From: a virus
Lineage: Duplodnaviria > Caudoviricetes
Direction: 5' to 3' (one strand)
IMG/VR virus record: IMGVR_UViG_3300017761_004426
Location: 1 to 33,377 of that record
DNA: 33,377 nucleotides
Position 1 is the stretch's first letter; each line of letters opens with the position of its first letter. Made by a program: the position numbers and the translations under genes. Shown here piece by piece: positions 3,099 to 30,787 of this stretch. The notes under the pieces were generated by a model. That model made no database searches. It saw nothing but the letters and a program-made list of their open reading frames with translations, and was not told where the DNA came from.

Positions 3099-5020
3099 GC
3101 AACGCCACCACCATCCGCCCCCACGAGATCCGCGCAATCTCTCGCTCCTCAGCGGTGGAGCTTCGCGCCCGCATCGCGGCGCGTTGCTACGCGTTCTCTT
3201 CGCTCGTCCCGCCGGAGGAGTGGGCGCAGGACATTTACCGCCTCCCCACCGGCGGACGGTTTCGCTGGGAGTTTGCGCCGTATACTCGCGCGATGTTCAA
3301 GAGCATCTTCGACCCCAACTCCATCGAAACTTCGATGCAACTTTTTAGCCGTGGGCTCAAGTCAACGGTCATTCTTCTTGCCATCGGTTACGTGATCGAC
3401 CAAGCACCGCGGCGCATCCTCAGCTTGTGGCCAACCAATGGACAAGGGGAGAAGTGGAGCAAGGACAACTTGTGCGGGGAGTTGCTGAACTGCACTCCCG
3501 CCCTTAGCTACCTCGGCAACGCCACGGGCAAACGCATCACAAGCAACACCCTCCTCCACAAAGAATTCCCCGGCGGGCTCATCGACATCTTCGGTGCCAA
3601 CTCCCCAGGCGATATGCGACGCGCGAAAGGATCGTTCCTCTACGCTGACGAAATCGACGCAATCGGCACCGAGCAAACCGACGAAGGCGACCAGCTCGCG
3701 ATCTTCAATAAACGCGGCGACGAATATCCCGACACCATCCGCGTATTCTCCTCCTACCCTTCGGTGCAGGGGCTCAGCAGAATCAACGCGAGGCTGAAAG
3801 ACTCAGACCACAACGAATGGCATTCGACGTGCGTGGAGTGTGGGGGCGAACCGTTCGTCATGCATCGGAATCAACTCCGCTATGACATCGCATCCCCAGA
3901 AGGTGCCCGCCTTGAATGCCCGCGGTGCTCCGCTTTGCTTACCGACCGCCAACGCTATGACATGGCACACCGCCAAGGCTACGACAACTGGCGACCGCGC
4001 AACGCCTTCCGTGGGAAGCGTGGATATCAGGCGAACGCGCTCCTCTGGCCTCACCCAGTAGACGAGAAAAAATACGCGGGGGGCTGGCTGCAGTGCATCG
4101 CCCAACAAGAGATTGACGCGAAGCAAAGCGACAACCCAAGGCGATCGATGCGCGTGCTTGTCAACACCGTGGACGCGGAACCTTGGGATCCTACCGAAGA
4201 CAGCGAAAAGCCGCCAGAGTGGCGGGAGATCTACGAAGCCCGCGAACACTACACCGACGCGCCGCGTGATGCGCTCTTTCTCACCGCGTTCGTTGACGTC
4301 CAGCTCAATCGCCTCGAATGCGGATGGCGGGCGTGGGGAAGGAACGAGGAAAGCTGGGGGCTCGACCACGTGGTTTTAGATGGACACGTTCGGATGGCAG
4401 ACGTTTGGAAATCTTTACGCAAGCAACTCGCCCGCAAATTCCCGCGCGAAGGTGGCGGGTATCTGACCCTTGGCATGGCGCTCGTTGACGGCGGCCACTT
4501 CGCCGAGGACGTTTACCGTTTCATGCAAGAACTTTCGACGAATCCGATGCCGGGGGTGAGCGGGAAATGTCGGGCGAGCAAGGGCGTCGGGCAAGCCAAC
4601 CACCCGATTATTGACCGCAAATGGAAGACGGTGGCGCGCAACCTTAAAGGGTATCACATCGGCACGTGGGAGGCGAAAGATCGCATCTATGAGCGGCTCA
4701 AGGTGAAGGCGAAAGACGGCGAGACGCCCGAAGGCATCATGCACTTCAACCAGCGATTCGGCGAAGAATATTGCCAGCAGTTGACCGTTGAGACGGTGGC
4801 GATTAGCTACGAGCGAGGGGAGGAGGTGCGGAAATATTTAAACGCGAAGCAGGCGCGAAACGAAGCGATAGACATTGAAGTTGGCAACCTCGCCGCCTTC
4901 CGCCTGCACCCGCGCAACATGGACGCGCTTGAGGATGAGCTTGAGAATCAGCAACCCATCAACGCGCCTGCGCCTCCTCAGGCGGCGAGCGTTATGCGGG
5001 GTGGCGGGTGGGGGCTTTAA
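3095..5020 (+). CDS. terL: Terminase large subunit, lambda gpA family
   Basis: 641 aa; APY motif, Walker B LYADEID, CVEC/CPRC zinc pair, nuclease motifs FVDVQ..RLE, VDGG, SKG, RNEAID. Confidence 0.95.
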   Translation: MSNATTIRPHEIRAISRSSAVELRARIAARCYAFSSLVPPEEWAQDIYRLPTGGRFRWEFAPYTRAMFKSIFDPNSIETSMQLFSRGLKSTVILLAIGYVIDQAPRRILSLWPTNGQGEKWSKDNLCGELLNCTPALSYLGNATGKRITSNTLLHKEFPGGLIDIFGANSPGDMRRAKGSFLYADEIDAIGTEQTDEGDQLAIFNKRGDEYPDTIRVFSSYPSVQGLSRINARLKDSDHNEWHSTCVECGGEPFVMHRNQLRYDIASPEGARLECPRCSALLTDRQRYDMAHRQGYDNWRPRNAFRGKRGYQANALLWPHPVDEKKYAGGWLQCIAQQEIDAKQSDNPRRSMRVLVNTVDAEPWDPTEDSEKPPEWREIYEAREHYTDAPRDALFLTAFVDVQLNRLECGWRAWGRNEESWGLDHVVLDGHVRMADVWKSLRKQLARKFPREGGGYLTLGMALVDGGHFAEDVYRFMQELSTNPMPGVSGKCRASKGVGQANHPIIDRKWKTVARNLKGYHIGTWEAKDRIYERLKVKAKDGETPEGIMHFNQRFGEEYCQQLTVETVAISYERGEEVRKYLNAKQARNEAIDIEVGNLAAFRLHPRNMDALEDELENQQPINAPAPPQAASVMRGGGWGL

Positions 5021-5030
5021 AATTAATTCA

Positions 5031-5059
5031 TTGCAAAGAGGGGAGAGAATCGGCAAGGT
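5031..5059 (+). promoter_or_regulatory. Putative promoter TTGCAA-N17-CAAGGT for the helicase cassette
   Basis: Same spacing and consensus as motifs at 6695, 10028, 15653 and 22572; ATG at 5070. Confidence 0.45.
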
Positions 5060-5069
5060 TCTATCGCTT

Positions 5070-6179
5070 ATGACAAAGCCTATTGAACTGCGTGACTATC
5101 AAAAAACCATAGTCGCCTCCACCTTAATCGCCTTACAAACTCACTCGCGGGTGGTTGTGGCTTGCCCGACAGGATCAGGGAAAACCGTCATTGCCATCCA
5201 CGGAATCCTTCCCAACCTGCAAGGGAAAACGGCTTGGGTGACGCACCGAAAAGAGCTTGAAAAGCAGGTGCATGAATACGGGGCAAACCTCAGAGTGTCC
5301 CTAGTGCAACGGAAAATCTTTGGCGATTACCAGAATATCATTATCGACGAGGGGCACCACGTTTGCGCGGATCAGTATCGGCAAATCCTAGAAGACCACC
5401 CTTCGGCAAAGATTATTGCTCTCACCGCAACCCCTTATCGGCTTGATGGCGTCGGGCTTGGATCATGCGGATTCACCAAGATCATCCACGGGCCAGACAC
5501 CTACGACCTCACCGAAGACGGCACGCTTTGTCGGGCCCGCGTCTACATTCCAAAATCAGAACACACGGCGGCGTGGTCGCCTGATGCCGCGGCAAGCCGA
5601 ATTGCCAAAACCGAATTCACTAAGGGGATTGTCTTTTGCCGATCAGTGGATGAGGCAAAGGAACTCGCGCAACTCCTCACCGCCGCAGGAATAAAATCTG
5701 CCAGCATTGACGGGATGACAGACCCAGAAAAACGGGGGCAACTCTTCAAGGGATTTGCGAAAGGAAAGCTAAAGATCATCTGCAACCACACTATCTTCAC
5801 CGAAGGCGTCGACGTTCCCGACGTGGATTTGATTGTTCTGAACCGCCACACTTTGAGCCGGTGCCTATGGAAGCAGATGATCGGGAGAGGAACTCGAAAC
5901 GCCCCCGGCAAGCAGGAATGCACGGTGCTAGACCTCGCGGGCAACGGCGTCTTCCACGGATCAATTTACGACCGAGAAATCTACGACCTCAATGGCAAGG
6001 TCGAATCTACCGAATCGCGAACACTCACCGAGACAGGGGGCGAGGACGAAACAACTTATGACCACAACCAAGGAGAAGAACTAAAGGAATGGAAACCACA
6101 ACCGAAACCAATCAGGCTAATCGCGAGCTTACAAAGACTGAAATTCAAATCGTTGTTGCACAGATTCAGGATCGCCTGA
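5070..6179 (+). CDS. Superfamily II (DEAD/DEAH-like) helicase
   Basis: Q motif LRDYQ, Walker A PTGSGKT, DEGH, TATP, TEGVDVP, QMIGRGTR; ATG at 5070 preferred over the ORF-track start inside terL. Confidence 0.92.
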   Translation: MTKPIELRDYQKTIVASTLIALQTHSRVVVACPTGSGKTVIAIHGILPNLQGKTAWVTHRKELEKQVHEYGANLRVSLVQRKIFGDYQNIIIDEGHHVCADQYRQILEDHPSAKIIALTATPYRLDGVGLGSCGFTKIIHGPDTYDLTEDGTLCRARVYIPKSEHTAAWSPDAAASRIAKTEFTKGIVFCRSVDEAKELAQLLTAAGIKSASIDGMTDPEKRGQLFKGFAKGKLKIICNHTIFTEGVDVPDVDLIVLNRHTLSRCLWKQMIGRGTRNAPGKQECTVLDLAGNGVFHGSIYDREIYDLNGKVESTESRTLTETGGEDETTYDHNQGEELKEWKPQPKPIRLIASLQRLKFKSLLHRFRIA

Positions 6180-7314: not shown

Positions 7315-9095
7315 ACATTTTCACGAAGATATTCAGCAAAAAAGGCGGGAACAAAACAGGGGAACGCGGGTTCCGCGAACTCGCTTCGGTTGGCGGTGGC
7401 ATCAATGGCGATTGGCCCGTAAGTCAGATCGGGGAAGACGCCGATATGTGGCAGAACGCGTGGGCGTTGACCTCCCGCGTTCGCGATCTTTTTCGCTCCA
7501 ATCCGCTCTACCAAGCATATCGTGAAACGCTGTGGGCGAACGTCTTCGGGAGCGAAGGCATCATGCTTCGGAGTCGCGTAAAAGAGCAGGAAGACCGCAT
7601 CGTGCAGAACGCCGGAGAGAAGGCGACGCTTCGCGCCTACGACGCGCGAATTGACCGCGTGCGCGCTCACGCCGCCGAGCGGAGTGGCAACCCGTTCCAC
7701 CCAACAAACCGCCCGTGGATCGGCTCTAATGGCTCAAGCAGGGCGCAAGTCAAAGTTGGTGAGCCTGACGTGTTCGCGCGGCAAATGATTGAGAAAAAAT
7801 GGGCGGAGTGGCAACGGGCGGAATACTGCGACACCCGGGGGACGCGTAACTACAAAACGATGCGACAGCTTCGCCTAATTTCAGCGGTTCGAGACGGCGA
7901 CTTTTTCATCCGCATGATTCGCGACCCTCGGGTAAATAAGTTTGGTTTCTCGCTTCAGATGATCAATGCGGAGTGGTGTGATCGCCTGATGAACGGGACG
8001 CTCGAGAACGGAAACGTCGTGCGAATGGGCATTGAATACGAGAGCTCAAGCTGGGGGCTTGGAAAGGCGGTGGCTTATTATTTCATCCGCCGTCAGCCCA
8101 ACGACTGGCAGTTCACGATTGCAGGCACCTTCGGCTTCGGGGCGATCAACAATGGGCTCCATGACCGCATCCCCGCCCGCGAAATCATCCACTACGCGCG
8201 CCCCGTGGACAGCGATTCGACCCGCCCCGCCCCGTGGGTTGCAACGACAATCCCGAAGGCGCGCCAACTCGACCAATACGAGCTCGCCGAGGTGGTCGCC
8301 GCTCGTCAGCAGGCGACGAAAACGGGGTGGCTTTACTCGGACGTTCTCCCCGAAGGCGGGAACGCTGGCTTCACCGTTGACCCGCGCAACGGTCTACCCA
8401 ATCAGCAGATGGGGCCGGGCGACATCGGCGCTCTTCCTTGGGGGGTGAAGTATCAAGCGATCGACCCGACGCACCCAAACGGCAACTTCGGCGAGTTCAG
8501 AAAAGCGATGGTGCGGAGCCAATGTGCGGGGATGCCTGGAGCCAATTACTCCACGATGGCGAATGATTACGAGGCGATCAATTTCAGCGCGGGACGCCTT
8601 CAGAAGCTCGACAGCAACGAGCTTTTCAAGCTCATCCAAACCTTCGACATTGACTACGCCGAGCGTCCAATTTTCGAAGCTTGGTTGGAGATGGCGCTGA
8701 CCACCGGCGCGATTCCGCTCCCCCTAGCTAAGTTCGACAAATTCAGCGCGGCAGTCTTTCAAGGGCGGAGGTGGCAAGGGGTGGACGAGGGGAAAGAAGC
8801 GACAGCCGCGGCGCTCCGCGTGGCAAATCACATGAGCAGTTTGAGCCGCGAATGTGCAGACAAAGGAGCCGACTTTGAGGAGATCGCTTTTGAGCGCGCG
8901 GAAGAGTTGATGCTTCAGGAGCAACTCGGCATCAACCCTCAACTGACCGTCGCCTATCCGCCCCCGCAGATGCCCGCGGCGAAGCCTGACGAAGAGGATG
9001 AGGAAGACGAGGAAGAGGATGAGGATGAGGAAGATGAAGAGGACGACGAGGAAGAAATGGCGCAAGCAATCGCCGCCGCTAAATCCCGCCAATGA
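7311..9095 (+). CDS. Portal protein, lambda gpB family
   Basis: SRVRDLFRSNP, RDGDFF, MGIEY, AVAYY, IIHY, INFSAGR, RPIFEAWL, GRRWQGVD..KE; poly-acidic C-terminal tail. Confidence 0.93.
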   Translation: MNIFTKIFSKKGGNKTGERGFRELASVGGGINGDWPVSQIGEDADMWQNAWALTSRVRDLFRSNPLYQAYRETLWANVFGSEGIMLRSRVKEQEDRIVQNAGEKATLRAYDARIDRVRAHAAERSGNPFHPTNRPWIGSNGSSRAQVKVGEPDVFARQMIEKKWAEWQRAEYCDTRGTRNYKTMRQLRLISAVRDGDFFIRMIRDPRVNKFGFSLQMINAEWCDRLMNGTLENGNVVRMGIEYESSSWGLGKAVAYYFIRRQPNDWQFTIAGTFGFGAINNGLHDRIPAREIIHYARPVDSDSTRPAPWVATTIPKARQLDQYELAEVVAARQQATKTGWLYSDVLPEGGNAGFTVDPRNGLPNQQMGPGDIGALPWGVKYQAIDPTHPNGNFGEFRKAMVRSQCAGMPGANYSTMANDYEAINFSAGRLQKLDSNELFKLIQTFDIDYAERPIFEAWLEMALTTGAIPLPLAKFDKFSAAVFQGRRWQGVDEGKEATAAALRVANHMSSLSRECADKGADFEEIAFERAEELMLQEQLGINPQLTVAYPPPQMPAAKPDEEDEEDEEEDEDEEDEEDDEEEMAQAIAAAKSRQ

Positions 9096-9160
9096 ACCGC
9101 CGAAAGCCAACGCCGAAGCCAATCATCAACCGCGACCCCGCGCAACTGACCACCCGATGA
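9092..9160 (+). CDS. 22-aa mini-ORF (MNRRKPTPKPIINRDPAQLTTR) bridging the portal stop and the head-gene start
   Basis: ATG 9092 overlaps the portal TGA; its own TGA 9158-9160 overlaps ATG 9157. Confidence 0.45.
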   Translation: MNRRKPTPKPIINRDPAQLTTR

Positions 9161-11355
9161 AGCCGCCCGATTACATCATCTCCGCCGCGAAGCGCGGGCT
9201 GGAATTGCTTGCCGATGGCTACGGCGGCGACGGGCTCACCGAAGGCACGAAAGACGCCGCGCGACGCATGGCCGCGGGCGAGGTGAGCGACGAGAAAATT
9301 GTGAAGGCGAACGCATGGGGGGCGCGGCACGCGGTCGACCTTGAAGCAGGAAAAAACAACAACGCCGACAACCCCGAATGGCCGGGGGCGGGGGCGGTTG
9401 CTCACTACCTTTGGGGGATTAACCCGCTCAACCCCTCACCCGCCCGCGAATGGTTCGCACGCCAAGCAGAGAAAATTCAAAACCCTAAAAAAATGAAATC
9501 ACCGACCACAACTCAATACCGCGCAGGCATGGCATCCACCGACGACTCGGGGCTGATGACGCTCTCTATTTGTTCAGACATCCCCTATCAACGCGGATCG
9601 ATGGAGGGCGACTATTACGAGGTGCTCGACCACTCGCCTGGGATGATGGATTACACCCGCCTAAGCAACGGTGCCGCCCTCCTCTTCAACCACGACCGCA
9701 ACATCCAAATCGGCACCGTGAGCAACCCGAAGATCGTTGATGGGCGCACCTACGTTGACGCCAAAATCTCAAGCGCGCCCGACGTCGCAAGCTACGCTCA
9801 ACGCATGAAGGAAGGGATTCTAAAGGACACGTCGATTGGTTACGAAATCATGGATGACGGCGAGCAGGTGGGAGAGATCGATGGCACCCCAGTCTTCAAG
9901 TTTAAGTTCCGCGTCCACGAGGCTTCGATGGTCACGATCCCCGCCGACACCACGGTTGGCATGGGACGCTTTCGCTCCTTGCAAGGCGATGAGGACAAGC
10001 AAGTTTCGTTCATCAAAAAACTGGGGGTTGCGAATGCAATTCCACAATCTCAATCTCAAATCAATCCACCTGCAATCAAATCAATCCCTACAAAACCTAA
10101 AATGGAAATCACCATCGACCCAACCAGCGAGCGCAATTTAGCGGTCGCCGAATTCAAAAGCCGTTGCAAAAAAATCGACGACTTCACCGCTTCCTTGAAG
10201 CACCCTCAGTGGCAGAAGGCCGCCGCTGAAATCGGCGCGAAGCACAAGACTGGCGAAGCCGACTTTGAAGCGTTCCGCCATGAAGCTCTCGACGCTTTTG
10301 AAGGTGTGACCCGCGTGAGCGCAGAAGACAAGGGAATCGGCATGAGCGCCCGCAACCTTGGCGACTACTCGCTCGTTCGCGCTCTTTCTGGCGCGGCTCA
10401 TGGCAAGCTGACGGGCCTCGAAAAAGAAGTTTCCGACACCGTCGCGAAATTGACGGGGCGCGAAACCCAAGGGTTCTTCATCCCGCAGGATGTGATGACA
10501 CACAAGCGCGCGCTCGCCTCCAACGTCTTCTCCGCCGCCGGTGCGCTTGTTGAAACTGGCTTCCAAGGGCAGTCGCTCATCGAACTCCTCCGGAACCAGA
10601 TGTACACCGTGGCGATGGGCGCGCGGACGATCAGCGGGTTGAAAGGCAACCTTTCGATTCCCTCGCAAACTGGCGGGGCGACGGCGTCTTGGCTCAGCGA
10701 AAACGCTACCATCGCCGAATCCAACCAGACCGTCGGACAGGTGAGCTTGACTCCTCATCGCCTCGCCGCCGCAACCGCCTTTACTTTCCAGTTGCTCGCT
10801 CAATCCACGCCTGACGTTGAGTCGTTTGTGCGCGAAGATTTGATGCGCGTGCTGGCGATCGCCAAGGATCTCGCGGCCACCTCTGGCACTGGCTACGCAG
10901 GCCAGCCGCTCGGCATTGCCAACACTCCCGGCTTGTCCACCTCGGTCACTTTGGCGGGCGCAAATTCAATGAACTACGCGAACGCGGTGCAGTTCGAAAC
11001 CAACGTTGCGACCAGCAACGCGCTTCTCGGAAAGCTCGGTTACCTAACCAGCGTTGCCACTCGCGGCAATGCCAAGCTCACCGCCGAAATCTCCGCCGCA
11101 AACTCCATCCCCGTGTGGAAAAACAACATCGTCAACGGCTACACCGCGATGGCGACGAACCAGCTGACCACGCTTCCTTCCGTGATCTTCGGCAACTTCG
11201 ACGATCTCATCATCGCCGACTGGGGGGCCGGTGGAAACGAAATCATCGTCGACCCTTACTCGCTCTCAATGCAAGGGCAGGTTCGGATCGTCATCCAACA
11301 CCTCACCGACGTCGCCGTTCGTCACGCTAAATCCTTCAGCGTGTCCTCCACCTAA
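9157..11355 (+). CDS. Fusion of accessory head domain, HK97-type prohead protease and major capsid protein
   Basis: N domain ARH...PGAGAVAHYLWG; protease LLFNHD, SIGYEI, EASMVTIPAD; capsid YSLVRAL, GFFIP, LIELLRN, LSIPSQT, FGNFDDLII, DVAVRHAKSF. Confidence 0.92.
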   Translation: MKPPDYIISAAKRGLELLADGYGGDGLTEGTKDAARRMAAGEVSDEKIVKANAWGARHAVDLEAGKNNNADNPEWPGAGAVAHYLWGINPLNPSPAREWFARQAEKIQNPKKMKSPTTTQYRAGMASTDDSGLMTLSICSDIPYQRGSMEGDYYEVLDHSPGMMDYTRLSNGAALLFNHDRNIQIGTVSNPKIVDGRTYVDAKISSAPDVASYAQRMKEGILKDTSIGYEIMDDGEQVGEIDGTPVFKFKFRVHEASMVTIPADTTVGMGRFRSLQGDEDKQVSFIKKLGVANAIPQSQSQINPPAIKSIPTKPKMEITIDPTSERNLAVAEFKSRCKKIDDFTASLKHPQWQKAAAEIGAKHKTGEADFEAFRHEALDAFEGVTRVSAEDKGIGMSARNLGDYSLVRALSGAAHGKLTGLEKEVSDTVAKLTGRETQGFFIPQDVMTHKRALASNVFSAAGALVETGFQGQSLIELLRNQMYTVAMGARTISGLKGNLSIPSQTGGATASWLSENATIAESNQTVGQVSLTPHRLAAATAFTFQLLAQSTPDVESFVREDLMRVLAIAKDLAATSGTGYAGQPLGIANTPGLSTSVTLAGANSMNYANAVQFETNVATSNALLGKLGYLTSVATRGNAKLTAEISAANSIPVWKNNIVNGYTAMATNQLTTLPSVIFGNFDDLIIADWGAGGNEIIVDPYSLSMQGQVRIVIQHLTDVAVRHAKSFSVSST
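10028..10056 (+). promoter_or_regulatory. Putative internal promoter TTGCGA-N17-CAATCT upstream of in-frame ATG 10102
   Basis: GGGTTGCGAA is identical to the motifs at 15650 and 22569; lies in the protease/capsid linker. Confidence 0.55.
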
Positions 11356-11392: not shown

Positions 11393-11782
11393 ATGCCACA
11401 ATCACCCGACATCAACGGAGAGAATACGGTCATCGCCTTCCTCCCTCCCACCGCAATCACCGCCGCGACAACCACTTACGCAGGCGTTGACCTGCAAGCG
11501 TTCGTGGGCAATGTGCTCGTTACCCTTAATTGGGTGCGACCAAACGCCGCGGCTGGCACGCTCGCCTTGGCGATCCTCGACAGCGCGGACAACACAACCT
11601 TCACCGCCAACGCGTTGACGGGCATCATCTCTGACGTCACGACCGCGACAAGCGGGTGCGTCAAATGCGCGATCGACACCAAAGCCGTCAACCGCTACGT
11701 CCAGCCAAAGCTGACCTGCACCGGCACCACGGCAACGTGGACGGCATCTTTAGTGATTGCCGGATTGAAATCGATCGTCTAA
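11393..11782 (+). CDS. Putative head decoration (auxiliary capsid) protein
   Basis: 129 aa, Thr/Ala-rich, directly after the capsid gene; GVDL, DSADNTTF and RYV motifs typical of this position. Confidence 0.65.
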   Translation: MPQSPDINGENTVIAFLPPTAITAATTTYAGVDLQAFVGNVLVTLNWVRPNAAAGTLALAILDSADNTTFTANALTGIISDVTTATSGCVKCAIDTKAVNRYVQPKLTCTGTTATWTASLVIAGLKSIV

Positions 11783-11809
11783 ACCTCGGTTTGGTTATTT
11801 GTCATAACT

Positions 11810-11839
11810 GGCGCAGTGCCGAAAGGCACTGCGCCTTTT
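11810..11839 (+). terminator. Rho-independent terminator after the capsid and decoration genes
   Basis: Perfect 11-bp stem GGCGCAGTGCC-GAAA-GGCACTGCGCC followed by TTTT. Confidence 0.9.
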
Positions 11840-11883
11840 GCTTGCCATCATGCTTCCCTTGTGCGAGTAAATCGCTCCTCCCA

Positions 11884-13260
11884 ATGACCACCACCGAAGC
11901 GCGAAAAAAGAACCGAAAGAAGCTTGGCGAAGCTGAAAAATTCTCACGAGCTGACGACCGAAGCGGAGCGGAAAAGATCTGGCGAGCGCACCTAAAAGAC
12001 GCCCCCGAAGATGCCGACGTGCTTTTCAACGTTGGCGTGTGCATCCAACGCCGAGCGCAGGAATCCGCAGAACGCCATGAAGCCGCCACCTTTTTTGATC
12101 GCGTCGTTTCTTCGCCCGAAGCGACGATGGAGCGCAAAGCCGACGCGCTCAACAACCTCGGGTTGCTCATGGAATCCATTGGTGAAAGCGAAAAGGCAAT
12201 GGTGGCTTATGGCTTCGCGCTCAAGATGTGGCCCACCCACAAAACCGCGCGCGTCAACCTCGGCGATTCGCACCGGCACTTCGGCAATTTTCACCAAGCG
12301 GACGAGGAATTTAGGGTCGTGCTCAGCCAAGACGAAGCTTCACCCGACGCTCACTTTTGCGCTGGGATGATCGCGCTTTTATTGGGTGACTACAAACGCG
12401 GGTGGGAGGAATACCGATGGCGGGTGAAGGTGCCAAACTACCAGACAAAACCTTTCATCACCGACAAGCCGAAGTGGCAAGGCGAACCGCTTGACGCCAA
12501 GACAATCATCCTCACCGAAGAGCAGGGGTTCGGGGACTCGTTTCAATTTTTGCGATACGCCCGATGGTTTAAGGCGCAGGGGGCGCGCGTGGTTTTTCGC
12601 GCTCAGCCTGCACTCCACCGCATCGCCGAAGGCTTCGACGGCATCGACGAGATTTGTCACCTCGGCCACGAACCCACCTTCGACTTCCACCTTCCGCTAA
12701 TGGACGCCCCCCACTTCGCCGAGACGACATTAGCAACCATCCCCACAGCCCATTGTTTGCGCATAATGCCACGCTGGGAGCGTTATTCGTTGCAGACGAG
12801 TAATCTACTTAGGCGGCGCATCGGCATCGTGTGGGCGGGCTCACCCGCTCACGGCAAAGATAATGCGCGATCGATCCCCGCCGAAGCCTTCCAGGCGATG
12901 ATCGACGCCAACCCGCTTCACGATTTTTACTCTCTTCAAGCAGGCCCGAAGCAACCCGAGATTCAGAACCTCCGCGGCATCACGAAAGATCTTTCGCTCG
13001 GCATCAAAGACTGGACGACGACCGCGCAAATTCTCTCGTGCCTTGACCTCCTCATAAGCGTCGACACCGCGTGCGTTCACCTCGCCGGGGCACTCGGTCG
13101 CCCCGTGTGGATGCTCACCCCTTACTCCCCCGATTGGCGGTGGCTACTCGCCCGCACAGATTCGCCGTGGTATCCACGCCTTCGCCTCTTTCGACAACCC
13201 GCCGCAGACGACTGGCAAACCCCGATCAAACAAATCTCCGATGCACTACAGGCTTTATAA
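11884..13260 (+). CDS. TPR-repeat protein fused to a GT9-like glycosyltransferase
   Basis: TPR helices (VLFNVG, ALNNLG, ARVNLG); EQGFGDSFQFLRY, IGIVWAGSP, FYSLQ, LDLLISVDTACVHLAGALG, DWRW, SPWYP..RLFRQ. Confidence 0.92.
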   Translation: MTTTEARKKNRKKLGEAEKFSRADDRSGAEKIWRAHLKDAPEDADVLFNVGVCIQRRAQESAERHEAATFFDRVVSSPEATMERKADALNNLGLLMESIGESEKAMVAYGFALKMWPTHKTARVNLGDSHRHFGNFHQADEEFRVVLSQDEASPDAHFCAGMIALLLGDYKRGWEEYRWRVKVPNYQTKPFITDKPKWQGEPLDAKTIILTEEQGFGDSFQFLRYARWFKAQGARVVFRAQPALHRIAEGFDGIDEICHLGHEPTFDFHLPLMDAPHFAETTLATIPTAHCLRIMPRWERYSLQTSNLLRRRIGIVWAGSPAHGKDNARSIPAEAFQAMIDANPLHDFYSLQAGPKQPEIQNLRGITKDLSLGIKDWTTTAQILSCLDLLISVDTACVHLAGALGRPVWMLTPYSPDWRWLLARTDSPWYPRLRLFRQPAADDWQTPIKQISDALQAL

Positions 13261-13840
13261 CTTCCTCCTCCAACGCGCCGCGGCTGACATCTACCCTGAA
13301 CCACCTTCGTCCATCCATTCGCAAATCACCGGGCAGATGGCCCCGCTTTTCGTCGCTACCCTACCCAAAAACGCGCAGATTCTCGACATAGGGTGTGGGC
13401 AAGGGGGAGCGTTGCAACTCTTCGCTGTGCTACGTTGTGACGCCGTTGGAATTGGCATCGGCGACGAAGACTTAGAAGCGTGCCGAGCGAAGAATCTCAA
13501 CGTTTTCAAGATGGATCAGAACGAAATGAGTTTCCCCGAAAACTACTTCGATGGCGTTTGGGCGCGGCACGTTCTCGAGCACTCGCTCGCCCCGCTCTTT
13601 ACGCTCACCGAAATCGCTCGCGTGCTCAGGCCAAAGGGCAGGCTCTACGCTGAGATGCCCGCCCCAAACACATCATGCCGCCACGAATCCAACCCCAACC
13701 ACTACTCAGTCTTCGGGAGTGAAGCGTGGGCGGAGTTGCTTTTCAAGGCAGGGTTCGACGATGTGCAGATGGTCAGCATCCCGCTCGAAACTGGCGCAGG
13801 AGCAGACGAGTATTACGCGTTCACCGCTACCAAATTATGA
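13241..13840 (+). CDS. Class I SAM-dependent methyltransferase (small-molecule or sugar type)
   Basis: ILDIGCGQG, FDGVWARHVLEH, RVLRPKG. Confidence 0.9.
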   Translation: MHYRLYNFLLQRAAADIYPEPPSSIHSQITGQMAPLFVATLPKNAQILDIGCGQGGALQLFAVLRCDAVGIGIGDEDLEACRAKNLNVFKMDQNEMSFPENYFDGVWARHVLEHSLAPLFTLTEIARVLRPKGRLYAEMPAPNTSCRHESNPNHYSVFGSEAWAELLFKAGFDDVQMVSIPLETGAGADEYYAFTATKL

Positions 13841-14856
13841 TCAAGATTTTCTACGCGGGCCAACCGGGACAAGGCTTCGGATGGGGGGTGGCAAATCATT
13901 ATTTGCGCACCGAGATTGCTCGCCTCACTCCCCTTGTCGATATCCCAGAGAAAGCCGACGTGGTTGTAATGCCACTCGCAAACCACGACCTCGACCCAGC
14001 AACCCGAGAGCGCGCGCGAATCAACCTCGCCATCACGTTTTTTGAGTCGCAACTAGGGGAGCGAGCAAGGGAAAACGCCCACCGATACAACGCTGTTTTT
14101 GCGGGCTCTTCGTGGTGCGTTGCTCGCCTTGCCGAGCGTGATATTCACAACACCTCTCCGCTCATTCAAGGGGTTGATCGGCGAGTTTTCAAATGGGCAC
14201 TTCCTCGCCCACGTGACGGGCACTTCCGCATCTTCAGCGGCGGGAAATTTGAGTGGCGGAAAGGGCACGACCTCGTGATCGCCGCCTTCCGTCGCCTCAT
14301 CGAAACTCACCCCACCGCGCACCTTGTTTGCGCATGGCACAACCCGTGGCCCGGCTTATTCGCGACCATGGCAAACTCTCCGCATATCGACACCGCCGCG
14401 AACGGCGGGACGCAAGAGCAATTCTTCGCAAACCTCCTCCTCATCAACGGCATCCCGCTCCACCGCTTCACCATCCTTCCGCAACTCACCCACGGGCAAC
14501 TCGCCGCCGAAATGAGCGCAACCGACTGCGGGCTTTTCCCCAACCGATGCGAAGGCGGGACGAATTTGGTGGCGATGGAATACGCATCAATCGGCAGGCC
14601 GATCGTCGCCAATGTGCTCACAGGGCACGCCGATATCCGCGACGCGATCACTCACAAAATCTTCGCCACCGAGGATTCGATGGGGTGGGCGGTGCAGACC
14701 ATCGAAGAAATCCACGCGAAGCTCGTCACCGCCGCGTCGGTGGAGCCAACGCCGATCCTCACCGCCCCCGTCTGGGAGTGGTCAACTGCCGCGCGCAAGA
14801 TCGTTGAAACCGCGCAGGCAATTGACCTTCAAACGTGGCGCTGGCACAATCTCTAA
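13837..14856 (+). CDS. GT-B (GT4-like) glycosyltransferase
   Basis: GFGWGV, QGVD, GKFEWRKGHD, FPNRCEGGTNLVAME (EX7-8E-type motif); ATGA overlap with the methyltransferase. Confidence 0.9.
   Translation: MIKIFYAGQPGQGFGWGVANHYLRTEIARLTPLVDIPEKADVVVMPLANHDLDPATRERARINLAITFFESQLGERARENAHRYNAVFAGSSWCVARLAERDIHNTSPLIQGVDRRVFKWALPRPRDGHFRIFSGGKFEWRKGHDLVIAAFRRLIETHPTAHLVCAWHNPWPGLFATMANSPHIDTAANGGTQEQFFANLLLINGIPLHRFTILPQLTHGQLAAEMSATDCGLFPNRCEGGTNLVAMEYASIGRPIVANVLTGHADIRDAITHKIFATEDSMGWAVQTIEEIHAKLVTAASVEPTPILTAPVWEWSTAARKIVETAQAIDLQTWRWHNL
14822..14850 (+). promoter_or_regulatory. Putative promoter TTGACC-N17-CACAAT
   Basis: Sigma70-like elements with 17-nt spacing; ATG 14859 shortly downstream. 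Confidence 0.5.
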
Positions 14857-25986: not shown

Positions 25987-26253
25987 ATGAACCAACCATC
26001 GCCACCACTCCCCGAAGCTTTCCCGCCACTATTATCCCTTCTCTTCCAACGCTTTAGAGGATCGGATGGCAAGCTAATTCGCGGGGCGCAATCACGCATC
26101 GCCGAGCACCTCGGCGTCACCTATGGCACTGTTAGCCAATGGTTTAGCAAGGGTAGCAAATGCCACAAAAAGCATCACGGGCAAATTGCTCAATTAATTC
26201 TCTCAAACGCTGACTTTTCGGCGAGGAAAACGGGGCCAAAAGCGGAGGCTTAA
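25987..26253 (+). CDS. Cro/CI-like HTH regulator
   Basis: QSRIAEHLGVTYGTVSQWF; GGGGAG upstream of ATG 25987. Confidence 0.75.
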   Translation: MNQPSPPLPEAFPPLLSLLFQRFRGSDGKLIRGAQSRIAEHLGVTYGTVSQWFSKGSKCHKKHHGQIAQLILSNADFSARKTGPKAEA

Positions 26254-26295
26254 AAACTTTTTTCCTTAGGTAAATGCATCTTTTTTAATCTTTTT

Positions 26296-26336
26296 TAAAA
26301 ATAATTGTTTACAAGTTGTGGAGAAGGTGGTTAATT
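26296..26336 (+). promoter_or_regulatory. AT-rich putative early promoter
   Basis: TAAAAATAATTGTTTACA, nearly identical to 30213-30229; -10 element is weak. Confidence 0.5.
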
Positions 26337-26390
26337 GATCTCACCAAAGCGAACCACGCCGAGGGAAAAATCCAAACCTAAAAAAATCCA

Positions 26391-26639
26391 ATGAGCGCAA
26401 CCGCAGCAATTCCTACAGCATCAATCGTTACAGCAATCAGCAAATCCACAATGTACACCGAGATTGTGGAGGCAACATTTATGGGTAGCTTCACTGACCT
26501 CGTCGCTTACCTAAACACCTCCACCGAATCGTGGGACTACACGGGGATCGATGGTGACGAAGGCACTGTTTATGACATTTACGGAACAGCAATCGGTGGA
26601 GCAGATTTCCGTCTCGCAGTTACCTGCGTAGCTTTTTAA
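26391..26639 (+). CDS. Hypothetical early protein
   Basis: 82-aa ORF with an A-rich leader. Confidence 0.65.
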   Translation: MSATAAIPTASIVTAISKSTMYTEIVEATFMGSFTDLVAYLNTSTESWDYTGIDGDEGTVYDIYGTAIGGADFRLAVTCVAF

Positions 26640-26732
26640 CTCACCCCTCAACCCTCACCGCCTCACCCGCCCCTCTCAAGGGGGCGGGTTTCGAGGTGCC
26701 GGGAATTAGCTCGGCAAATAACTCAAACCTAA

Positions 26733-27071
26733 ATGACAAAAAAAACCGCAGTCTTAACCATCAGTGGCTTAATCGTAAATCTCCACACGGACGACAACCT
26801 GACCCTCGCCTTCGATGGCATGGTTGAGTCAACGCCGCAATCCCTTGCGGAGCTCATCAACATTGACGCCCTCGTGAAGATCTCCACGGAAAGCAACGAC
26901 AGCAACGAGCGCATCAAGGCGGCGAAGGCCGTGGCAATCGGCGCAACGCTCATTGAGCGGCGCACCCTCCACAATCTAATCAGCGACCTTTCGGTGGAGC
27001 TGCAAGCCGAGCGGCTCGAAAGCGCCCGCCTCCGGTCATTGATCAAGCTCAGCGGAGGACAGCCCGTATGA
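26733..27071 (+). CDS. Hypothetical protein
   Basis: 112 aa; leader CAAACCTAAATG. Confidence 0.65.
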   Translation: MTKKTAVLTISGLIVNLHTDDNLTLAFDGMVESTPQSLAELINIDALVKISTESNDSNERIKAAKAVAIGATLIERRTLHNLISDLSVELQAERLESARLRSLIKLSGGQPV

Positions 27072-27235: not shown

Positions 27236-27480
27236 TCACAATCAAAAGCGAAAACTGGCTGATGGCGGAAGCGATGGAGCGAATGCTGGCACGTCACCCC
27301 GACTTTAATGGTGGGCAAGGGCGAGCGCATACGGATGAGCTATGGGCGAAGGTGATCAAAGAGCAGGGGCACGATCCTCGAGCGAATGCGGAGCCACTCA
27401 GCCTCGAGCAACTCAGCGCCGACGTGGCCCGCCTCCGTGCGATCAATGAGCAGTGGACAGACAGGCGCACCGTGAGCTAG
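27232..27480 (+). CDS. Hypothetical protein
   Basis: 82 aa, ATGA-coupled. Confidence 0.6.
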   Translation: MITIKSENWLMAEAMERMLARHPDFNGGQGRAHTDELWAKVIKEQGHDPRANAEPLSLEQLSADVARLRAINEQWTDRRTVS

Positions 27481-27494
27481 AGTGAGAAAAGCAA

Positions 27495-27611
27495 TTGAAC
27501 CTGCTACCAATGAAAATGCCCACCCATCGCCCCAAGTCTCTCCGTCTGCCGAGTTGTCATTGCTCAGGTTCAACGGGCGGAGAGACTTGGGGCTTTTTGT
27601 TTAAAAAATGA
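27495..27611 (+). promoter_or_regulatory. Structured leader or attenuator upstream of the replication initiator
   Basis: 20-bp stem 27529-27548/27574-27593 followed by TTTTTGTTT; competing pairing 27495-27513/27557-27573; leader ORF 27510-27611. Confidence 0.65.
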
Positions 27612-28408
27612 ACTGGATCAACTTGAAAATCAGCGCGATGAACTCGCAGGAGCCCGCGGGAGCTACGTCGGCAGAGCTCGGGACATGGCTTCGCCTCGCG
27701 CTCTATTGCGTGGAGCAGGAGAACGGCGGCACGATTAAGGGGGCGCGTGATTGGAGCCCTCGGCAATGGATGGCAATCATAGGGGTGAGCGAGGAAGAGA
27801 TTGATGCCGAAACTCCGCTGTGGAAATGGGAGGAGCTCAACCTAGTAATCTGGAATTATCCGGCAGACCATCAAGAGCGCGTCGAACGCCTCCGCGAAAT
27901 CGGCGGGCGACGCGCAAAGGGCAAGCCTAAACCAACAAGCGAAGCAGAGGGGGGGGCAGAGGGGGGAGCTTGTGCTATACCAGAGGGGGGAGCAGAGGGG
28001 GTGGCTCAAGGTGACCCTAAGAGTAATAGTAAAGCTAATAGTAATTCTAAGAGTAAAGGTAAGGAGAATAGTAATGATAAAGTGAAAGTAGAAGTAGAAT
28101 CAGAAGCAGAAGCAGAAGACGCCATCCCCGCGGACGCAACAGCAGATCCCGCCGATGCTCATACGGCGCTCCGCGCGGTTGCTGATTTGGGAGTGGAGTA
28201 TTTTTTAGATCTGAAGGCAAACCCGACATACAAGGCATTGGATCTTCAACTAGAAGCCGGGAAAGCAAACGCCTGGGCTGTGGCGAACCGCCGCAAATTC
28301 ACTAAACGATTCTTCGTCAACTGGCTCAACCGCGGGCTCGACCGAGCCGCGCAGGTAAACGCCGACGCAAATTTGCACAGCGCAAAGCACCCTAAATACG
28401 GGTGGTAA
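27608..28408 (+). CDS. Replication initiator or replisome organiser
   Basis: MNWINL...GTWLRL..YC..QENGG N-domain, low-complexity linker, C-terminal FVNWLNR; upstream of a DnaC-like gene. Confidence 0.75.
   Translation: MNWINLKISAMNSQEPAGATSAELGTWLRLALYCVEQENGGTIKGARDWSPRQWMAIIGVSEEEIDAETPLWKWEELNLVIWNYPADHQERVERLREIGGRRAKGKPKPTSEAEGGAEGGACAIPEGGAEGVAQGDPKSNSKANSNSKSKGKENSNDKVKVEVESEAEAEDAIPADATADPADAHTALRAVADLGVEYFLDLKANPTYKALDLQLEAGKANAWAVANRRKFTKRFFVNWLNRGLDRAAQVNADANLHSAKHPKYGW
27945..28120. repeat. Iteron-like CAGAGGGGG repeats plus A-rich tract (putative origin)
   Basis: Copies at 27945, 27957, 27981 and 27993; A/purine-rich tract at 28021-28120. Confidence 0.6.
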
Positions 28409-28450: not shown

Positions 28451-28699
28451 ATGACTAAGCACACCTACAGCTTCAAAATCATCAACGGGCGCGTCAAAGT
28501 CTACGTCAACGGCTACGTCATGTTCTGCTTCAACCAGATTGATTTTAAGGGGTACTACAGTTACAAGGACGACACTTTGCTCTACGGCATCGACATCTAT
28601 CTGATGAACGAAAAAGGCGGGGCGACCACGATGGAGATTTATTTTAAGACCAAAGAAAACTGGCTCGGTATCCTCCGCCTCCTTGACGAAAATTTATGA
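28451..28699 (+). CDS. Hypothetical beta-rich protein
   Basis: 82 aa, AT-richer than neighbours, ATGA-coupled to the DnaC-like gene. Confidence 0.65.
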   Translation: MTKHTYSFKIINGRVKVYVNGYVMFCFNQIDFKGYYSYKDDTLLYGIDIYLMNEKGGATTMEIYFKTKENWLGILRLLDENL

Positions 28700-30211: not shown

Positions 30212-30212
30212 T

Positions 30213-30253
30213 TAAAAATAATTCTTTACTTCTGATTCAATCTGCACCATTCT
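30213..30253 (+). promoter_or_regulatory. AT-rich putative promoter TTTACT-N17-CATTCT
   Basis: Shares 16 of 17 nt with 26296-26312; ATG at 30260. Confidence 0.55.
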
Positions 30254-30259
30254 CTTTCC

Positions 30260-30787
30260 ATGACCAGAAACCAAATCGCCGCCCGCATCATCAAATCCCG
30301 CAACGAAAACACATTCACTGAGTTTGTCGCGCAACACCCAACCACCACAGGAATCGGAACATGGAAATACTCCTGCGACCGTGCCGGATGGCACTCCTTC
30401 ACGGTTGGTAAAGCCATGGAGACATTCGGCAAGTCAGAGAACCTCGCTTGGAGAGTCGCTGGGAAAAACACCAACGTGACCCTTGAGGAACTGCTGGTCG
30501 ATGCCGCTGAAAACAAAGATGCCGCTGCCGCTGCGGAAATCGAGAGCAAGATCAGCAAGGAAGAAAGAAAGAACCCCGGAACAATCTGCTCCACCGTAAA
30601 GGCTGCCTGCGAAAAGGCGGGAGTCTTCTTCAATCGCACATCGCACGAAAATCAGTATTCCACCAACCTTGTCTTCACGATTGGGGAACAACGGGTGCGC
30701 TTCGACTACTGCGGCGGAGCGATGATGAAAATAGCCTGTGGCCCAACTCAACTCATGGGACTGGTGGCAGCATTCTTACGCTCATGA
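30260..30787 (+). CDS. Hypothetical protein
   Basis: 175-aa ORF after the AT-rich promoter. Confidence 0.65.
   Translation: MTRNQIAARIIKSRNENTFTEFVAQHPTTTGIGTWKYSCDRAGWHSFTVGKAMETFGKSENLAWRVAGKNTNVTLEELLVDAAENKDAAAAAEIESKISKEERKNPGTICSTVKAACEKAGVFFNRTSHENQYSTNLVFTIGEQRVRFDYCGGAMMKIACGPTQLMGLVAAFLRS

Follow-up and report, generated by a model that had tools for sequence, protein, structure and literature searches.

The question raised by this locus is how a likely replication gene is controlled when it is preceded by a long hairpin, enclosing sequence complementary to two segments upstream of the hairpin, and by a short ORF that crosses the hairpin and ends on the gene's start codon. The window analysed, a stretch of 33,377 bases, is an entire phage record. 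Its genes, all on the + strand, include a lambda-type terminase and portal, capsid and tail genes, a CHAP endolysin, a small HTH gene, a DnaC-like loader, Sak4 and RusA; no viral relatives were found for the DnaC-like protein or for A2. The sequencing runs that contain half or more of the record's sampled words (14 of 24 listed) are all freshwater metagenomes, and none of the listed runs sharing its words is an RNA dataset. The host is likely a member of the Verrucomicrobiota, because homologues of the gene downstream of the hairpin are found in Akkermansia phages (three records), in six GTDB contigs (four from Verrucomicrobiota, one from Lentisphaerae and one from a Clostridiales bin) and in 13 of 401 Verrucomicrobiota genomes.

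Other features of the genome may be recorded here. Genes for a ParB-like protein, a TET-associated glycosyltransferase and an RGP-like protein are located at the left end (85-2553), and glycosyltransferases and a methyltransferase follow the capsid genes (11656-14856); both sets possibly function in DNA or virion modification. Prohead protease and major capsid domains are fused in a single ORF (8998-11355). AT-rich gaps that share similar promoter-like starts lie ahead of small genes that vary from one close relative to another (26253-26733 and 30212-30260 of the window, 4850-5500 of metagenome locus L025, 8300-8340 of metagenome locus L026), and together they look like exchangeable early-gene cassettes; a GC hairpin at approximately 26665-26692 of the window recurs in L025. 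In L026 (5690-7522 and 5850-7484, 610 and 544 aa) and L049 (4075-4862), methyltransferase-like regions contain long open frames that overlap one another on the same strand.

The downstream gene (27608..28408, + strand), termed a replication initiator in an earlier note on this DNA, is likely to be one. Its 266-aa product has two folded domains, a disordered middle and no family match of its own; a Foldseek search of it returned nothing at E<=0.001 and no significant match to a solved structure, the best viral rows being weak matches to HTH, DUF1376 and replisome organiser proteins. Among its homologues, 9 of 42 match the PHROG replication-initiation family phrog_3926 and 6 of 42 match phrog_270, its Atlas neighbours are Lin1244_N, DUF1376 and DUF4373, and a DnaC-like gene lies downstream at 28696. 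The assignment is made because of these homologues, the Atlas neighbours, the weak fold matches, the gene order and four iteron-like repeats in the disordered middle. The repeats, four copies of CAGAGGGGG followed by a purine-rich low-complexity run (27945-28001), are possible iterons and may mark an origin. The protein is also modular, at least three N-terminal types being combined with two C-terminal types among close relatives (window 27608-28408, P0001-P0048).

Upstream of this gene, a predicted leader RNA of approximately 110 nt, which the comparisons below indicate to be real, is more elaborate than the earlier note described. That note had correctly reported a stem of 20 pairs (27529-27548/27574-27593), two of them U-G, with TTTTTGTTT immediately after it (27594-27602) and 14 nt between the stem and the ATG at 27608, as well as a 33-codon ORF from the ATG at 27510 with its TGA stop (27609-27611) overlapping that start. 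The complementarity of the enclosed 25 nt is likewise exact: TCATTG and CAGGTTCAA match CAATGA (27508-27513) and TTGAACCTG (27495-27503), a 9-nt run equalled in one of 2000 shuffles of the target window, and in a 9-mer search of the window TTGAACCTG was the sole target complementary to the loop, the loop's own opposite strand aside. What the note missed is that these 25 nt are themselves folded into an upper stem (P3), an apical loop (a', 27555-27561) and a 3' bulge (b', 27567-27573). Also missed were the small hairpin P1 (27490..27505; 4 bp, 8-nt loop), whose loop is the upstream partner and displays the key b (TTGAACC), and a promoter-like site just ahead of P1. From 5' to 3' on the + strand, the predicted parts are a probable sigma-70-type promoter (TGGACA-18-TAGAGT, 27454..27483) within the 3' end of the upstream ORF, ending 6 nt before P1 and with a predicted transcription start near 27490; P1; element a (27508..27513), which contains the leader AUG and pairs with a'; the leader ORF (27510..27611); an A/C-rich, G-poor linker (27514..27528); the long hairpin of P2, P3, a' and b' (27529..27593); and the U tract of a predicted intrinsic terminator (27594..27602). 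The folding energy of the 201-nt region is modest (z = -2.2, with 4 of 200 shuffles equally good), so the case for the structure is carried by covariation.

The earlier note had made its proposal depend on conservation of the crossing pairings in relatives, and they do covary, in close and distant relatives alike. Three of eight metagenome loci (L025, L026 and L027) have the element before the same gene family. When these three were aligned with the window, 8 of 35 named pairs had changed on both sides, four in the crossing helices and four among the 20 pairs of P2. In this alignment 99.3% of cells are paired and none of 500 shuffles scored as high, a result that is not a probability because four sequences are few and related; slid controls contained no two-sided changes. 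Further variants were seen by eye in tables of contigs aligned to the window, among them one contig in which both sides of a stem pair had changed and another in which a pair had become a wobble. In the same tables different genes follow the hairpin, and the 3' side of the hairpin is a junction beyond which relatives differ in gene content.

More distant members were sought upstream of initiator homologues from two viral scans, a partial sample made up of the 80 best loci among 167 in the first scan and among 293 in the second, which was centred on a known carrier. There were 177 initiator loci, of which seven were too short and were dropped, leaving 113 distinct upstream regions. Among the loci listed, a long stem with a large enclosed region and a T-rich tail precedes the start codon in 18 of the 113 regions and is absent from the other 95. 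Every one of the 18 has a Watson-Crick match of 6-9 nt (b/b') that joins a bulge beside the 3' arm to a stretch located 26-44 nt upstream; b lies between the arms of a 3-6-bp stem in all 18, and after collapsing to 12 groups there are 12 different b/b' keys. A match of at least seven was found for the group's own pair in 11 of 12 groups and for 2 of 132 mismatched pairs, in search windows that were chosen after examples had been seen; the groups occupy about five clusters of a quick initiator tree with long branches, including that of the window's own protein, so P values overstate their independence. Shuffles of single elements equalled the b/b' match in 0 to 101 of 2000 trials. In a scan of 1.57 Mb without anchoring to the initiator, 18 of 366 long-stem hairpins had a b/b' match of at least seven: 12 family members, two simpler variants in locus L059 and four apparent chance cases.

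The layout common to the groups consists of a promoter-like site, P1, the leader AUG 17-23 nt before the stem, the linker (AUG-to-stem distance 14-20 nt, 57-85% A+C and 0-12% G in 12 groups), P2 of 13-21 bp, P3 with a', b', the U tract, and the initiator start 10-28 nt further on; invariant columns are few across the distant members. The b/b' pair is universal among carriers; eight of the 12 groups have 5-9 a/a' pairs, three (L085, L146 and L149) have a weak a/a' match and L157 has none. The two L059 variants (1116-1155 and 3492-3531) have different keys within one record, and each pairs its P1 loop with a bulge in a terminator of 11 bp; the first lacks a leader AUG and is followed by a helicase/methylase-like gene, and the second is followed by an HNH-like gene located immediately before the initiator (labels assigned by eye). 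The element is best described as a mobile or often-lost module and not a fixed part of the initiator family, because of the 95 regions without it and the scattering of its carriers over about five places in the quick tree. A search model (R3) run over 151 Verrucomicrobiota genomes gave six matches in five genomes, read as plain terminators or coding hairpins, and the initiator homologues of the 13 Verrucomicrobiota genomes had no upstream element in the loci folded by eye. Pattern scans of viral contigs gave 22 loci and then one locus, all rejected as unrelated, and a blastn search of the element against phage records gave one match that was judged to be chance.

The Rfam search proposed in the earlier note returned no match at gathering score either in the window or in 11 related loci, the 11 weak matches being far under the thresholds and none of them belonging to C4. 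Judged against Rfam, the RNA family is uncatalogued, the alignments of the catalogue of 10,006 viral candidate RNAs (PMC10690425) being outside this comparison. No published description of such a leader was found in a search of literature consisting largely of open-access papers.

Several observations bear on whether the element acts as RNA, and from which strand. The + strand folds better than the - strand in all 12 groups and has more G-U pairs, and there are 6-8 T per 9 nt after the stem on the + strand compared with 2-5 on the - strand (12 groups), a count to be read with the T-rich tail being itself a selection criterion for the hairpin set. The promoter-like site of the window is weak evidence alone, being one of two in 9.9 kb where 4.3 are expected by chance; at its fixed place before P1, none of 500 shuffles scored as high. 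The promoter is above shuffles in 4 of 12 groups (the window, L025, L027 and L155) and not in the other eight. The last codons of the upstream ORF (window 27454-27480; L025, L026) are alike in L026 despite divergence of the rest of the protein; this conserved end overlaps the promoter-like site, which may be the constraint.

Ten of the 12 groups, against 1.5 expected from shuffles, have a leader ORF whose stop falls within -6 to +1 of the initiator A, with eight ATGA junctions, one TAATG and one stop four bases before the start; the leader misses the initiator start in L025, where it stops inside the stem, and in L149, where it stops 17 nt into the gene, as it likewise does in L156. A functional leader peptide was considered and rejected, because the peptide is not conserved and both frame and sequence differ between close relatives. 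An anti-AUG triplet (CAU or CGU) is located in or beside the apical loop in 11 of 12 groups. Occlusion of a Shine-Dalgarno sequence was rejected as the target: by the pattern used, SD-like words precede 5 of 34 starts (two coordinates being off by one), none of them the leader or the initiator start.

These comparisons lend good support to the earlier note's proposal of an RNA switch gating a phage replication gene, and control of the downstream gene at the RNA level, a claim common to most of the readings weighed here, is very probable. The preferred reading of how this control operates, given not quite an even chance, is that the leader is a transcription attenuator acting in cis to meter the likely initiator. 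Transcription would start at P1, to judge from the promoter motif, and P1 would fold first, displaying loop b; the pairing of b with b', indicated by covariation, is predicted to form once the bulge emerges and before the 3' arm of the terminator does. By analogy with the guanidine-IV riboswitch, this clamp would keep the terminator stem of 13-21 bp from closing completely for long enough that some polymerases pass the U tract, as a stem of more than one helical turn should be harder to close within a kiss-clamped loop while polymerase holds the 3' end. The apical loop would then pair with the leader AUG and shut out late ribosomes, limiting the time for loading; a ribosome would travel through the hairpin, and by way of the ATGA overlap reach the initiator start, only on transcripts that had been loaded early, and the remaining transcripts would end as an RNA of approximately 110 nt or be read through without translation of the initiator. 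The input is likely to be kinetic (polymerase speed versus ribosome loading), because the pairing letters are free to change, which points to no ligand pocket.

Folding of successive prefixes is consistent with this order, the crossing helix being the best structure until about 11 P2 pairs can form. The terminator fold is favoured at equilibrium by about 33 kcal/mol (-49.3 versus -15.9), and therefore the clamp can act only kinetically, kinetics being outside the scope of ViennaRNA. A kissing loop has been proposed as the antiterminator of guanidine-IV, where the kiss competes with the growing terminator stem (PMC11611296, PMC7736828). When a terminator lies within 100 bp of the start of an ORF, ribosomes on their own do little to suppress it (PMC4824070), and on that basis a second aid to antitermination would make sense. 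Against the cis attenuator, four of the 12 groups have a weak a/a' pair or none, the leader is off the initiator start in two, one L059 variant has no leader AUG, and the promoter is above chance in just four groups.

The same pairings could be used differently. An unlikely but substantial alternative is action in trans by the RNA left after termination or trimming, whose bulge and apical loop would pair with P1 and the leader AUG of new transcripts from a phage that has the same key; with cis clamp and ribosome both blocked, the terminator would form, conceivably providing copy-number feedback or self/non-self exclusion like that of P4 CI. A probable promoter and a terminator of its own would yield a discrete RNA, the 12 groups have 12 different keys, two elements of the single L059 record differ in key, and trans action would supply an input signal and have both pairings act in one direction. 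In intact RNA, however, the RNA's own P1 would occupy b', so that processing would be needed for trans action; the key is diverging no measurably faster than P2 (12 of 42 versus 17 of 84 positions, p = 0.37), and the 9-mer search of the genome gave no second target. Among the lysogeny markers searched for, a tyrosine integrase was found in 1 of 15 records and in neither of two near-complete ones, a resolvase in none of 15, and ParA and S24 repressor domains in none of five, and with these markers mostly absent there is no clear lysogenic state to protect. Precedents for trans action are P4 CI and IsrK, which act on their own transcript (PMC4825925). The broader idea that Verrucomicrobiota phages without integrase or repressor use a widespread lock-and-key leader RNA to count their own copies or exclude kin, feedback and immunity being combined in one transcript, is about as probable as trans action itself. 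An attenuator of pyrBI type, in which antitermination is left to the ribosome alone and the two crossing pairs form alongside the complete terminator stem so as to hide the leader start, is less probable still. It is in keeping with a terminator placed within an ORF whose peptide is not conserved and with the anti-AUG triplets; by a rough estimate of strand lengths, the 7-bp kiss is also compatible with fully formed P2, and so could be an OFF lock instead of a clamp. On the other hand, the universal pair b/b' is kept even in the L059 variant (1116) that has no leader AUG, and ribosomes seldom catch polymerase within 100 nt unless there is a pause (PMC4824070).

Binding of the folded leader by the initiator, another phage protein or a small molecule that would set termination is a poor candidate. 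The compact double-crossing fold resembles riboswitch expression platforms, and autogenous control is common for replication genes. A kissing pair without conserved letters, the few invariant columns in distant members and the lack of an Rfam match tell against such binding; a protein that binds shape would still be compatible with them. A counter-transcribed antisense RNA that binds the loop, as in IncI/IncB or pT181 plasmids, is very improbable. It would suit a leader coupled to an initiator, and there are weak minus-strand promoter-like matches in L026 and L027, but a minus-strand promoter is above shuffles in none of the 12 groups (best single locus 50 of 300), that strand has no U tract and folds less well than the plus strand, and the region that would hold such a promoter is swapped between relatives. 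A signal at the DNA level, such as a single-strand origin or a recombination site, would account for the exchange of downstream genes at this junction; that explanation, like chance, can hardly be credited in view of the strand-specific G-U pairs, the U tract, the conserved ORF coupling and the covarying crossing pairs, and the iteron-like repeats are located inside the gene instead.

A close counterpart is the guanidine-IV riboswitch (GGAM-1/mepA motif), in which the loop of a 5' hairpin kisses the loop of a terminator-containing hairpin and is proposed to hinder full formation of the terminator (PMC7736828, PMC11611296). The phage leader differs in having no conserved ligand-binding letters (12 keys), no Rfam match, a 3' bulge instead of an apical loop as the partner, a second pairing on the leader AUG, and a phage replication context with an initiator-like gene downstream rather than guanidine-related genes. 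Should the kiss by itself, with no ligand, hold off so long a terminator, the element would offer a small natural system for testing the steric antitermination that has been proposed for guanidine-IV, and RNA switches could be built directly from its twelve orthogonal natural keys. The E. coli pyrBI attenuator has its intrinsic terminator, a predicted one in the phage, inside a short leader ORF (PMC4824070). Attenuators of this type have a nucleotide-sensitive pause by which ribosome and polymerase are coupled. The crossing pairings and the overlap of the leader stop with the next start are peculiar to the phage leader in this comparison.

The plasmid and phage analogies drawn in the earlier note are loose. 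The coupling of a leader to an initiator gene, known from IncI/IncB plasmids, is seen here as a sequence arrangement in 10 of 12 groups; an antisense promoter, a second target and a C4 match were not found in the searches described above. In IncI/IncB plasmids the pseudoknot is formed by an upstream stem-loop that pairs with sequence beside the rep ribosome site. I-complex plasmids (repB/repY leader, RNAI/Inc, pseudoknot) share with the phage a leader ORF coupled to the initiator and a long-range pairing mediated by a loop (PMC10286972, PMC10724649). In the phage, by contrast, the hairpin has its partner 26-44 nt upstream, in P1 and at the leader start rather than beside the rep ribosome site, no antisense promoter was found, the hairpin is terminator-like and the initiator is unrelated. 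For P4 CI and P1 C4, complementary targets are located both upstream and downstream of the RNA, which is processed, acts in trans and gives immunity. P4 CI, P1/P7 C4 (RF01695) and Gifsy-1 IsrK resemble the phage leader as same-strand RNAs with two short elements complementary to their own leader, upstream of replication or switch genes (PMC4825925, PMC2864571). The phage leader has no downstream target in the 9-mer search, no C4 match and a simple hairpin, and most of its carriers show no integrase; if trans action is nevertheless true, RNA-based immunity or copy control would extend beyond P4, P1 and N15 to phages with no visible integrase. The zipper-type attenuator cATT of pLS20 combines a weak upstream hairpin, a long stem and a terminator in the leader of a mobile element, its signal being given as unknown (PMC13401043). 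The upstream hairpin of cATT pairs with the terminator's own stem and loop, whereas a and b pair with the apical loop and bulge, crossing the stem without involving the P2 arms.

The leader thus lacks a defining feature of each of IncI/IncB, P4 CI/C4, guanidine-IV and cATT. Its interest is that Rfam has no entry for this structured RNA family, whose crossing pairs covary with unusual clarity and which is situated at a gene that likely starts replication; the leader appears to work like a transcription attenuator in which features known separately from guanidine-IV, pyrBI and the I-complex plasmids are mixed.
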